Under the pieces are notes generated by a model. It was not told the DNA's origin, made no database searches, and worked only from the letters and a program-made list of their open reading frames with translations. Positions 15,634-43,314 of a DNA stretch of 64,000 nucleotides are shown piece after piece. Position numbers and translations under genes: made by a program. Within the stretch, counting starts at the first letter, position 1; each line of letters opens with the position of its first letter. Source of the stretch: an uncultured Desulfocapsaceae bacterium (GTDB taxonomy: Bacteria > Desulfobacterota > Desulfobulbia > Desulfobulbales > Desulfocapsaceae); NCBI GenBank assembly GCA_964558875.1, contig CAZLGM010000001.1, positions 5,447 to 69,446 on the forward strand, read 5' to 3'.

Positions 15634-18600
15634 TCAGCCCAATATCCCACCCAACAGCTTATCCACATCCGACTCAAAGGCGGGGTGCCTCTTCAACCGC
15701 TCATTGATGCCCTGATACCAGTCCAGATCAGACTGACCATTGATACTGATCAGGGTACCACTTGTCTCAGGTGTCTGCAGGATATCTGAATCATTACCGA
15801 GCAGGACTCCCATCTCAAGTAAAATAGGCTTAAACAACGGGTCATCACCAAATATGGGAATAAACTCTTCAATCCAGAAAAGCAGGGTCTCACTATAACG
15901 CGATTCCATGTCTGTTAGAAAATCGGCCAGAATATTGACGCTGTCGGTATAAAAAACTTCCAGCTCTGCAAAAAATAAGGGCCAGGAACTGTATTGCTTA
16001 CCGACAAAATCGATAAAGGCCTCAGCATCTTCGTAGATTGAAGCAAGCCACCAGGGATCGGTCGGCCGGGCATCATCACCTGCTCCAGGGTCTGTTCCCA
16101 TTGGAACAGTCTCGCCACCCGGTTCACCTGGATTCGGGTCAATTCCTTGACCAGTCGGGTCCTCGAAGGCGCCCATATCGACACCGGTACCGTCATCCCT
16201 GGCTTCACCTCGCTGATCGGTTGTTAAGCCATCAGGGTTTGATCCGGAGTTCAGGGCCGGGCTGCCAATATACAGCACATGGGTTTGGGTCGGCCCGCCA
16301 TTATCCGCCAGAGGGCCGAGTCCGGGGTCAGCTCCAACAATATTGCCAAGACCGTCACCGCTGACACCGGAGTCGGGAACCGCATGGCCGCCGTCATCGG
16401 ATTCGATCAGGGAATGATCGACGCTCAGGGTACCCCCCGGTTCGTGAAAAAGATCGTTTCCTGCAGTATCAGACGTATTATTGCCGATAATGGAAGAGAC
16501 AATATCCATCGTTGCAAATGAACCCAGAACAACACCGCCGCCATTATAGCGTGACCTGTTGTCACCAATAGTTGAATTCTTGATGCTGGTGATTCCGGAA
16601 AAGCTCTTTATCCCCCCTCCATCGGAATTGGTTGTTTCATTGCCGGAAATGGTTGAGTTCTGGACGGTAAGCGTTCCTGAGTAAGTGAAAATACCGCCGC
16701 CACTCCTAGTTGATGTGTTGCCGGAGATGGTGGAGGCGGTTATGGTCGCTGTCCCGGAATTATTGATGCCGCCGCCGAAATCGTGCGCCGTGTTGTTCGA
16801 AACGGTGGAGCTGTCAATGGTTACTGTGCCGCTGTTATTGATACCGCCGCCATGACTGTCAGAAGCGGCAGTGAAGTTATACTTGGCGGAATTGTTGCTG
16901 ATGGTTGACTGACTGATGGTGGCTATTCCCGTATTTGCAATACCGCCGCCGCTGTACTTGGCATTATTTTCCGAGACAGTGGAGCCTGTGATGGTAATAG
17001 TACCGGAATTGAAAACACCACCGCCGTCACCAGAGGCGTAACTGTACGAGACGGTGGAGGCGGAGATCGTCAGGTTTTCCCTGTTGAGGATGGCGCCTCC
17101 GTCGTTGCCGGAAGAACCGTTCTGCAGGATCAATCCGGCCAGGAGAACGGTGGACTGGGTGGTACCGCTGGTATCATCGACATTGAAAATTCTATTGTTG
17201 TCCCCCCCGTCAATGGTGATTTTGTCATTTCCATCAATGGTAAGGTTTTTGTCAATGACCAGCTCACCTAGAACTGGATCAAGATTAATTGGGCCATCCA
17301 GGTCGGGATGAAAGAGAATGGTTCCCTTGTCGGTAGCATTAGCAATTGCCTCCCGCAGGGAGTAGTCGCCGGCAGAGAAGTCTCCGTCGTTCTCATCGAC
17401 CAAGGTATCCACCAGGTGATTGCCCTCCCAGGCGCCCATATCCACACCACCCACATCTCGATTAAAACCGGCGCCCCGCTGGTCATTGGCCAACGCGTCC
17501 GGATTGGAGCCGGAATGCAGGGCGGGGCTTGAGCCCATGAGCGCATGGGTCCGGGTAGAGCCGCCGTTGTCGGCCAGGGGCCGCAGTCCGGGATCAACAC
17601 CGACGATGTTGTCGTTGGTACCATTGGCGATGGTATGACCATTCGGGTCCTCGATAAGCGAGTGGTCAGCATTCAGGGTACCACCGGAGTGAAAGACATC
17701 GGCTCCGGCCAAGGCTGTGTTGTTGCCGACAATGGTTGAATTTAAGGTCGCATCGCCGTTGACCTGAAAAAGCCCGCCGCCCCTTCCAGCTGTAGCGCTG
17801 TTTTCGGCAACGGTTGAATTGTTGATTGTCGCTGTGCCGGAGTTGGCAATACCACCGCCGTCCCGCCCGGCGCTGTTACCGGACAGTGTCGAGTTGGAGA
17901 CGGTGAGGATGCCGGAGTCGGTATTGCTGACACCGCCACCGTCCTTGTCGGCATGATTTCCGGATAAGATTGAGCTGTTGACGGTGGCGGTTGCCTTGTT
18001 GAACAGGCCTCCACCGTTTTTGCCCGCCGTATTCTTCTTCAGAGTGGAATCGGTGATGGTAACCACTCCGGTACCGATATTACTGATGCCGCCGCCGCTT
18101 GCATCCGCCGTGTTCTTCTTGAAAGTTGAGTCGGTGATAGTGATCGCACCTGAACCCCGATTATGGACACCGCCGCCTTTGCCGGTGGATGTCCAGTTTT
18201 CCGAGAATGTCGAGCCGGTGATGGTGGCAGTGGCCTTATTGTATAGACCGCCACCGTCCTCCATGGCTGAGTTGTTTTTAACAGTTGAATCGGTGATTGT
18301 AAGGTTGGCTCCGGCTCCTGAATTTCGGATACCGCCGCCATTCATATAGGCCGCGTTGTCCTTGAAAGTTGAGCCGGTGATGGTAGCTGAAGCCTTGTTG
18401 AACAGTCCGCCGCCATCTTCAATTGCAATGTTGTCTTTTACCGTTGAATCGGTAATGGTGAGTGTAGCGCCGGTTCCGGTGTTATGGATTCCGCCGCCGT
18501 TTTTGGCGTTGTTTACAGAGATGACCGAATCACCATCGATGGTGACGCTGGCCCCTTTATTGGAGATACCGCCGCCGCTTGTATCTGCCGAGTTCTTCTT

Positions 18601-43314: not shown

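Follow-up and report, generated by a model that had tools for sequence, protein, structure and literature searches.

The NCBIfam family choice-of-anchor Q (NF041518) was conceived as a domain that lies just ahead of one of several alternative C-terminal sorting or anchor signals, and RbtA, a CSLREA-domain protein of Acinetobacter baumannii, is a type II secretion substrate that is sorted via a GlyGly-CTERM signal by rhombosortase. RbtA, for which solved structures are available (PDB 9cdu/9cdv), has been described as a cell-surface protein, and the paper reports no function for it (PMC12643943). The second point of reference for the present work is Tce1 (PA0256), a type VI secretion system (T6SS) cargo from Pseudomonas aeruginosa, in which His186 and Cys240 were proposed to be catalytic from a superposition with the cysteine protease domain (CPD) of TcdB; the authors could not show activity for Tce1 (PMC13323088). 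Here we describe a locus in a stretch of 64,000 nucleotides (nt) from an uncultured Desulfocapsaceae bacterium (contig CAZLGM010000001.1; this whole stretch is referred to as the window), where positions 15634-43320 of the minus strand form one continuous reading frame that holds two giant genes with the same beginning and the same end, named U (upstream) and D (downstream). In our reading, to which we assign a probability of roughly 0.6, U and D are tandemly arranged paralogous genes for a giant protein that is exported or located at the cell surface, and the system has recently been inactivated or truncated in the sampled population.

Two giant genes built of beta-helix modules

The layout of the two genes was as follows (aa, amino acids; ORF, open reading frame; an asterisk within a motif stands for the stop).

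31525..43320, minus strand: giant gene U, with 3932 codons counted from its first ATG and an in-frame TAG that interrupts it
35131-43320 (2729 aa) and 31525-35049 (1174 aa), minus strand: the ORFs of U, from mechanical ORF calling
35131..35133, minus strand: in-frame TAG of U, inside module U5 (RLSGLRM*NGNAAG)
43270..43299, minus strand: LEDRILFDAA motif of U, from a motif search
42412..42870, minus strand: DUF4347 domain of U (Pfam), with the His in VHVFSHG and the Cys in LYGC as a putative catalytic pair
32038..42402, minus strand: module array U1-U6, with modules starting at aa 307, 781, 1229, 2008, 2610 and 3272 and the array ending at aa 3761
31528..32037, minus strand: C-terminal domain of U, 170 aa, lineage-specific, ending GINQRLKKHPAFESEVDKLLGGILG
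15634..31392, minus strand: giant gene D, with 5253 codons and an in-frame TAA that interrupts it
27445-31392 (1315 aa) and 15634-27387 (3917 aa), minus strand: the ORFs of D, from mechanical ORF calling
27445..27447, minus strand: in-frame TAA of D, inside the tail of module D2 (GNIVG*NPYLRPLADNGG), at a variable position of the NIVGxDP motif
31348..31377, minus strand: LEDRILFDAA motif of D, from a motif search
30475..30942, minus strand: DUF4347 domain of D (Pfam), modelled with pLDDT 87.5 in a caspase/CPD-like fold
16162..30453, minus strand: module array D1-D11, with modules starting at aa 314, 717, 1376, 1781, 2200, 2723, 3069, 3427, 3771, 4101 and 4658 and the array ending at aa 5077
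15637..16161, minus strand: C-terminal domain of D, 175 aa, with no Pfam or NCBIfam match and one database relative

The initial annotation had described two tandem paralogous genes of about 5,250 and 3,930 codons at 15634-43314, filling about 43% of the window and sharing their terminal domains. The boundaries were placed correctly, 15634 being the first base of the stop codon of D and 43314 the likely start of U, i.e. its second ATG, which lies 6 nt after AGGAGG and yields MAIYALEDR, as in D; the span behind the 43% was also confirmed. The N-terminal regions of U and D are 65% identical and the C-terminal regions 63.5%, with DUF4347 present in both N-termini, so the shared terminal domains and the tandem paralogy stand. 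What does not stand is the integrity of the genes: neither is an intact ORF, the pair being split into four ORFs by one in-frame stop each, and the codon numbers had been obtained by reading through two real stops, so that they fit the ancestral genes and not the present ORFs.

The module counts, 6 for U and 11 for D, were borne out both by a SLREA-type regular expression, which found 6 and 11 heads, and by our own head and tail hidden Markov models (HMMs), which gave 6+6 matches in U and 11+11 in D, in strict alternation. In an alignment of 15 modules, the head (VDxLVDENDGDYSxGDxSLREAI...ITIDG...SRIFNIDD) and the tail (HSLIE...NIVGxDPxLxPLADNGGPTxTHAL..GSPA.N.G....DQRG..R....DMGAxE) are constant, and the interval between them is filled by NSTISGNxAxxxGGGI-type coils of ~24 aa each, which differ in number from module to module. 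Because the number of coils varies, module length ranges from 330 to 779 aa, a wider spread than the 330-480 aa given at first; by a rough count, U contains ~75-110 coils and D ~90-140. The head motif, (D/N)(Y/F/L)(S/T)LREA(I/V) (e.g. GDYSLREAI), has no Cys as in CSLREA, and 15 of its 17 copies are internal, unlike the position of the family CSLREA_Nterm.

To judge the fold, we used an AlphaFold2 (AF2) model of D9, the shortest module (330 aa), which is a right-handed beta-helix (pLDDT 82.6, pTM 0.84) with the SLREAI stretch forming a helix at its N-terminal end. The best fold match of this model in the PDB was RbtA (Foldseek E 8e-7), followed by pectate lyase Pel9A (E 3e-3), and RbtA was also the sole PDB match of the module profile (E 4.8e-18), which covered the CSLREA head and, weakly, the DQRG...GAIEY end. 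Since RbtA was the best match by fold as well as by profile, each module is predicted to be a complete RbtA-like right-handed beta-helix with its own caps, a CSLREA-like helix at the N-terminal side and a choice-of-anchor-Q-type tail at the C-terminal side.

Family profiles, together with the AF2 model, upheld the proposed succession of head, parallel beta-helix and choice-of-anchor-Q-type tail. The choice-of-anchor Q model (58 positions, curated cut-off 25 bits) scored 231.6 bits over four stretches and 144 bits over two in the ORFs of U, and 71.2 bits over one and 611.7 bits over ten in those of D; Beta_helix (PF13229) scored 81-140 bits in all four ORFs (gathering cut-off 25.9), and DUF4347 was found as well. 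CSLREA_Nterm (TIGR04214, cut-off 25) passed its cut-off only in the long downstream fragment of D (91.9 bits), with 24.9 and 23.3 bits in the upstream fragments of U and D, respectively. The Pmp-like turns named in the initial annotation were not recovered, as the Chlamydia PMP repeat (PF02415) had no match in the ORFs of U at E<=0.01 or in those of D at E<=0.1; precomputed matches to it are present in some homologues elsewhere. The sorting context of choice-of-anchor Q is not reproduced either: 16 of the 17 tails are followed by the next module or a stop, and the last tails by the C-terminal domain of 170-175 aa. This domain matched no Pfam or NCBIfam family and no sorting-signal model, has a single database relative of 189 aa, and is restricted to a small clade around the lineage of the window; it sits where single-module relatives have their sorting signal and might anchor the protein.

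The same matches raise the alternative that the modules are enzymes arranged in series, such as polysaccharide lyases, hydrolases or epimerases, and have no adhesive or structural role. The fold matches that follow RbtA are indeed Pel9A, other enzymes acting on pectin or alginate and phage tailspike depolymerases, and there is a weak match to the NosD family. However, these fold matches have low TM-scores (0.2-0.47), as expected from a beta-helix fold that is generic; conservation across the modules is found in the Gly, Asn, Ser and Thr of the coils and in the cap motifs, and the module alignment contains no recognisable conserved cluster of acidic or basic catalytic residues; moreover, a row of 17 diverged copies would be more usual for structural repeats. 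We thus regard the enzyme hypothesis as unlikely and retain the interpretation of U and D as giant exported or cell-surface proteins.

The G+C content of the giant genes (window 16001-42000) is 0.49-0.55, compared with 0.43-0.50 in the flanks, which probably reflects the Gly/Ala/Thr-rich coil repeats and not a foreign origin. The flanking genes have a tentatively 'deltaproteobacterial' look.

Internal stops and evolution of the arrays

The TAG of U occupies the place of the conserved Gln of an 'LQNG' turn in the other modules, so a single CAG>TAG change suffices to produce it. Behind the TAG of U and the TAA of D, 1201 and 3936 codons, respectively, are open in the same frame. Loci that are 99.5-99.9% identical to that of the window were found in other assemblies: an exact copy of the 1174-aa ORF was recovered in seven contigs, which belong to ENA, JGI and Logan assemblies made from different samples, with the same neighbours in the six shown, and the same 3917-aa ORF is present in two ENA scaffolds. 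The 63-nt contexts of the stops are identical in these loci, with the TAG in 6 of 6 other assemblies and the TAA in 5 of the 5 that reach it. Because the contexts are identical in independent assemblies, the stops are genuine, and they appear fixed in the sampled population; because 1201 and 3936 codons stay open behind them, they must be recent.

A third lesion affects the neighbouring gene for an M50 metalloprotease fused to a membrane-fusion protein (M50::MFP). An additional A at ~11485-11487 splits this gene inside NGNPLLRFDG, which is the catalytic NxxPxxxxDG motif, and the resulting cut-short M50 ORF of 290 aa recurs without a difference in 8 contigs that come from several samples. To locate the frameshift, we compared the window copy with the intact gene of a syntenic locus from another metagenome-assembled genome (MAG), GCA_964565605.1, referred to below as L007. 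Since M50::MFP is frameshifted in addition to the stops in U and D, the locus looks recently inactivated or truncated in the sampled population. The three apparently fixed lesions would then capture a natural population shortly after the system was shut down, a pattern expected where a large surface protein turns into a liability.

We also weighed the opposite possibility, that both genes are intact and functional and that the stops are sequencing or assembly errors, or are bypassed by a suppressor tRNA, programmed readthrough or an alternative code. A very long in-frame ORF behind each stop is expected only if the interruption is very recent or bypassed, and both stops have A as the next base. 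Sequencing error was nevertheless rejected as the source of the stops, given that the 63-nt contexts are the same in 6 and 5 other assemblies obtained from different samples with different pipelines. An alternative code or readthrough was rejected on the grounds that all three stop codons end ordinary genes of the window (TAA 13, TGA 9, TAG 6), that no tRNA gene lies within the window and that the two stops are different codons. Furthermore, a longer allele is absent from the 90%-identity clusters to which the four ORFs belong, and the M50::MFP frameshift lies in the same locus. Intact and functional genes are, in our view, quite improbable. The downstream fragments were likewise considered, and rejected, as independent genes, because a Shine-Dalgarno sequence lies ahead of the true starts but not of the first ATG behind either stop.

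L007's giant gene, known from this single MAG, appears to be broken too, by a +2 duplication of 'TC' after the NIV of its last tail (~23490-23500 of L007, contig CAZMFP010000005.1). The site is one codon from the position equivalent to the TAA of D2 (NIVG*NP), which may be a coincidence or a mutational hotspot.

The modules and the variation among near-identical strains allowed us to follow how the arrays evolve. The following regions are relevant in this respect.

20216..21922, minus strand: recent duplication D7/D8, with 663 nt at 96.4% identity and an exact repeat that has a period of 1044 nt and extends over at least 405 nt
29652-30028, minus strand: strain-variable coil region, D aa 457-579, with a 75-nt one-coil indel in D1
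38370-38405, minus strand: strain-variable coil region, U aa 1644-1660
40160-40230, minus strand: strain-variable coil region, U aa 1031-1054

At the protein level the modules are mutually 32-50% identical, the exceptions being U1/D1 (43-45%, reciprocal best hits), U6/D11 (50-58%) and D7/D8 (76%). The pairings of U1 with D1 and of U6 with D11 imply that the first and last modules are orthologous and that the inner modules expanded separately; among the latter, U3-U5 form one group and D6-D9 another. In near-identical strains, all 99 single-nucleotide polymorphisms (SNPs) and the 75-nt indel fall into the three coil regions listed above, all of them upstream of the stops, with no SNP downstream. 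As the variation is confined to these regions, it fits exchange between coil repeats, and the strain differences suggest exchange or slippage between coil repeats instead of point mutation along the genes. Judged from the alignments, the arrays evolve by whole-module duplication, as in D7/D8, and by gain, loss or exchange of coils.

These repeats also invite the objection that the tandem arrangement or the number of modules is an assembly artefact of repetitive DNA, a concern that had been voiced in the initial annotation. It applies to D7/D8, with its long exact repeat: several public assemblies (contigs from JGI and Logan) are interrupted at this repeat, which makes D7/D8 the one unit with an assembler-dependent copy number. 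Strains also differ by the one 75-nt coil in D1. The other module pairs, in contrast, are 32-58% identical as protein and ~60-75% as DNA, which is too diverged to be collapsed or inflated, the U-D junction and both stops recur in several assemblies, and the same 3917-aa ORF was recovered in the two ENA scaffolds. We therefore hold an artefact to be highly improbable for the arrays as a whole.

L007 provides the closest comparison for the whole locus. It has one giant gene instead of two, which, with the frameshift repaired, runs over 4740 codons with 9 modules. Identity to the window is 61-88% for the flanking proteins and 81-88% for the cassette proteins described below, and the giant protein of L007 is 63-67% identical to U and D in the N-terminal region and 53-64% in the C-terminal region. 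The best matches between modules reach only 35-56%, for which reason a one-to-one orthology of modules between the window and L007 was rejected; set against the 82-88% of flanking genes, these values mean that the arrays evolve much faster than their surroundings.

The N-terminal unit and the flanking cassette

U and D begin with MAIYALEDRILFDAAGPG and have no hydrophobic segment anywhere and no Sec-type hydrophobic signal. The motif is followed by a linker of ~130 aa, rich in Asp and Glu (31-32%) and in Ser and Thr (32-34%), and then by DUF4347 (PF14252), which scored 154.2 bits in U (aa 151-303) and 157.9 bits in D (aa 151-306; gathering cut-off 24.6). In an alignment of nine DUF4347 sequences, VHIISHG..G and LLYGC.VA.G are conserved, the Cys being present in 9 of 9 and the His in 7 of 9. 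The best Foldseek match of the AF2 model was chain G of 9qpe, i.e. Tce1, deposited as 'DUF4347 domain-containing protein' (1.2e-5), and further matches were caspase-3/7 (3e-5 to 1e-3), legumain and MALT1. In a profile alignment, the His and Cys of U and D fall on His186 and Cys240 of Tce1. Because of these fold matches and of this alignment, DUF4347 of U and D is predicted to be a CPD/caspase-like (clan CD) putative cysteine protease domain that has kept its His-Cys pair, and the likeness to toxin CPDs and caspases suggests that it may process the giant proteins in cis, which is a reasonable inference from the model.

Cyanobacterial DUF4347 proteins (L096, 10001-15007; L097, 341-6358) start with a two-partner-secretion (TPS) domain and have CHAT or beta-helix parts; no cassette lies near their genes, and the putative catalytic His is replaced (VAIVAEG). 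By sequence comparison, DUF4347 is thus reused in at least three export contexts, namely TPS, T6SS Hcp cargo and the M50 cassette. DUF4347 as an export signal was rejected, as it occurs in a T6SS cargo protein and behind TPS domains; since it travels by several routes, the N-terminal motif is the better candidate for a cassette-specific element.

The genes around U and D follow one another on the minus strand, in the order of transcription, as DUF4915/TIGR03032+TPR, OEP, U, D, MFP, P460, an M50-like ORF of 290 aa and a HlyD-like ORF of 390 aa.

45721..47196, minus strand: DUF4915/TIGR03032-family protein with TPR, upstream of the outer-membrane factor (OMF) gene
43853..45508, minus strand: TolC-like OMF (Pfam OEP), encoded directly upstream of U, whose signal peptide is lipobox-like
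15124..15612, plus strand: conserved ORF of 162 aa in the interval from D to the MFP gene, with a 78% identical counterpart at the same site in L007
13942..14805, minus strand: membrane-fusion (periplasmic adaptor) protein (RND_mfp 155 bits; 257 aa by other gene callers)
12535..13917, minus strand: P460, a HlyD-like protein of 460 aa with a cytoplasmic N-domain of ~195 aa, one transmembrane segment and a periplasmic adaptor part
10268..12347, minus strand: M50 metalloprotease (HExxH ... NxxPxxxxDG) fused to MFP, split into ORFs of 290 and 390 aa

In L007 the M50 and HlyD parts are a single protein of 692 aa, to which the window copy aligns end to end in two frames, so that the window gene is homologous over its full length (81-88%) and split. 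The gene order of the L007 cassette is that of the window. The DUF4915/TIGR03032+TPR gene is 88% identical in L007 and absent from the 83 other cassette loci described below. No ABC transporter was found among the window genes scanned, and the predicted membrane topology of the cassette fits an envelope-spanning assembly.

We then looked at the cassette in other genomes. A scan of one genome per species returned at least 361 M50::MFP loci, of which the best 80, together with three found via protein look-ups, were examined with flanks of 10 kb. These 83 loci come from Pseudomonas, Burkholderia, Methylomonas, Nitrospira, Magnetococcus, Lentisphaerae, Planctomycetota, Pelagibacteraceae, Aliarcobacter, Komagataeibacter and others. 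The fusion of ~700 aa is the norm of the family (1222 matches, annotated as 'putative peptide zinc metalloprotease protein' or as 'HlyD family efflux transporter periplasmic adaptor subunit'), in which neither HExxH nor NxxPxxxxDG varies; the closest match in the one-genome-per-species collection is 39% identical to the window protein. With our own profiles, a P460 homologue was detected in 77 of the 83 loci, each time adjoining the M50::MFP gene, an MFP in 56 and an OEP in 47, while an ABC-ATPase-like ORF was seen in seven and had no fixed position. A large DUF4347 ORF lies within 10 kb in 31 loci, a minimum given how many of the loci are truncated where a contig stops. Twenty-four of these 31 ORFs match ALEPR(I/L/M)(L/M)FDGA, 40-200 aa ahead of the domain, and five more have close variants recognised by eye; LEDRILFDAA of U is a variant of this motif. 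In Victivallis sp. Marseille-Q1083 (L014) the order is OEP, DUF4347 protein, MFP, P460 and M50::MFP, and the DUF4347 protein (1836 aa) has MBG_2 repeats instead of beta-helix modules. Conversely, the database protein P0012, which was found via the giant protein and not via the cassette, has an OEP gene directly upstream. Taken together, the neighbourhoods show a conserved gene set that is linked to the giant LEPR-motif/DUF4347 proteins. In the literature searched we found no description of the cassette or of the module arrays, which does not disprove that one exists.

These findings led us to propose a mechanism. U and D would be exported in one step by the TolC-like OMF, the MFP, the HlyD-like P460 and M50::MFP, with the N-terminal LEPR-type motif serving as a recognition or cleavage element for this set and the M50 domain recognising or cutting the motif; DUF4347 may process the giant protein in cis. 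The modules, stacked end to end, would give a rod or string of beads tens of nanometres long, which could bind a surface or glycan ligand and act as a long adhesive or protective surface structure.

Several observations weigh against this interpretation of U and D: (i) export, surface location and ligand are steps deduced from sequence, and the closest solved homologue, RbtA, has no known function; (ii) the cassette has no recognisable energy source, i.e. no ABC, RND or MFS component, so it is possible that the transporter is encoded elsewhere or that the cassette has a role other than export; (iii) DUF4347, being present in the T6SS cargo Tce1 and behind TPS in cyanobacteria, is itself no marker of a pathway; (iv) no NCBIfam family, LEPR-XLL (accession presumably NF012209) included, is reported on aa 1-307 of U at E<=0.01; (v) the tail of the D9 model is of low confidence (pLDDT 35-74); and (vi) the long ORFs behind the stops show no further decay, with no strain SNPs there by which purifying selection could be gauged. 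With regard to (iv), the likeness of U and D to LEPR-XLL is at the level of the motif only (LEDRILFDAA vs ALEPRxLFDGA), and we therefore do not claim membership of that family.

The energy source is the weakest point of the model, so that a role of the cassette other than export stays a live rival. In this alternative, the OMF, MFP, P460 and M50::MFP proteins would serve the processing and export of small peptides, or efflux, and the giant proteins would be mere frequent neighbours. M50-type HExxH proteases are known from peptide maturation, and weak NCBIfam matches to daptide and YydH/LiaK-type proteases, far below the cut-offs, point the same way, as do the 52 of 83 cassette loci that have no DUF4347 ORF within 10 kb and the energy-supplying component that was not seen. 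On the other hand, in at least 31 of the 83 loci, from many phyla, the cassette has a DUF4347 giant next to it or within it, in many cases flanked by the OMF and MFP genes, and the giants have no Sec signal but a common conserved N-terminal motif. We judge a non-export role to be rather unlikely.

Export by the cassette may be put in a more general form, which we offer as tentative: OMF, MFP, P460 and M50::MFP could constitute an undescribed ABC-less, envelope-spanning export and processing system dedicated to giant proteins of the ALEPRxLFDGA type, mostly with DUF4347 and with interchangeable passenger repeats. Such passengers would be beta-helix modules in the window, MBG_2 repeats in Victivallis and others elsewhere, and M50 would act on the motif in a manner similar to the C39 peptidase domain of bacteriocin-type ABC exporters.

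Additional features were noted around the cassette. The 162-aa plus-strand ORF has no Pfam family match and no hydrophobic segment. A gene for a bactofilin and AAA_22 ATPase protein (8829-10235, plus strand) is a neighbour of the cassette, in the opposite orientation, not only in the window but also in L007 and a further locus (L012), and shows a weak match, far below the cut-off, to the XrtA/PEP-CTERM-associated ATPase. Gene sets for a histidine kinase and a sigma-54-dependent response regulator are present on both sides (2376-7374 and 47663-51235), accompanied by a response regulator with DUF4388 and Roadblock/LC7 domains. A search for sigma-54 promoters gave 40 matches vs 35 expected, with no consensus upstream of U, D or the OMF gene, and sigma-70 and terminator scans gave consensus-level matches only and nothing usable upstream of these three genes.

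Comparison with known systems

The initial annotation took modules of this kind to occur normally once per protein, a premise that the public databases contradict. A search with the 1315-aa ORF returned 917 proteins at E<=1e-10 from Planctomycetota, Cyanobacteria and Chloroflexi, named among others 'choice-of-anchor Q domain-containing', 'CSLREA domain-containing' and 'right-handed parallel beta-helix repeat-containing', and most of the best 120 of them have 2-5 modules according to our HMMs. The tail profile, run against 1.84 billion representative proteins, matched 62,746 of them at E<=1e-3, of which 1,339 reached E<=1e-30; the 150 top-scoring proteins have 2-9 tails each, alternating with heads, at lengths of up to 6,774 aa. 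Two examples with 8 heads and 9 tails are P0135 (3688 aa) and P0160 (3194 aa). Many of the multi-module proteins begin with LEDR/LEPR-type motifs, like U and D, and P0012 has the same layout, with the start MAIYALEERILFDAA, DUF4347 and modules. Among the best 150, the ancestral D, with 11 modules, would top the list, whereas the present 3917-aa ORF, with 9 complete modules, ties the maximum. Eleven modules is therefore an extreme count and not a new architecture; the differences of the window genes are this count, a C-terminal domain confined to a small clade, their tandem duplication and the interruption of both. U and D are new, extreme and degraded members of a large, annotated but uncharacterised kind of protein.

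With RbtA, the sole solved relative of this very large, annotated and experimentally untouched family, the modules share the head, the beta-helix and, to a weak degree, the end DQRG...GAIEY. In RbtA, the profile finds one stretch, which corresponds to one module, compared with 6 and 11 in the window proteins; RbtA has the Cys in CSLREA, whereas the window modules have Tyr, Phe or Leu there, and the window proteins have no Sec signal and a different C-terminal domain. The clan CD proteins (Tce1, the CPDs of TcdB and MARTX, and caspases) share the fold and the His/Cys pair with DUF4347 of U and D. Tce1 is a T6SS cargo of 310 aa, whereas in U and D the domain heads a giant protein.

The extreme example of 11 modules in a tandem duplication is in itself of modest interest; the leads worth following are the N-terminal motif, the CPD-like DUF4347 and, above the repeat arrays, the export cassette, which recurs across many phyla. 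If the cassette is a secretion route, this could be tested in culturable strains of Pseudomonas and Stutzerimonas. Its nearest counterpart is the type 1 secretion of giant RTX adhesins of the LapA and SiiE type, in which a giant repetitive surface protein with no Sec signal is likewise encoded beside TolC-like and HlyD-like genes, and P460 has the HlyD-like layout of that system, with a cytoplasmic N-domain, one transmembrane segment and a periplasmic adaptor part. The differences are that U and D have no RTX repeats (no HemolysinCabind match) and carry their conserved element at the N-terminus, and that a dedicated ABC transporter is encoded neither in the window locus nor in 76 of the 83 related loci. 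In its stead, a TolC-like channel and adaptors are combined with an M50 intramembrane metalloprotease that, fused to an MFP, takes the place at the inner membrane.

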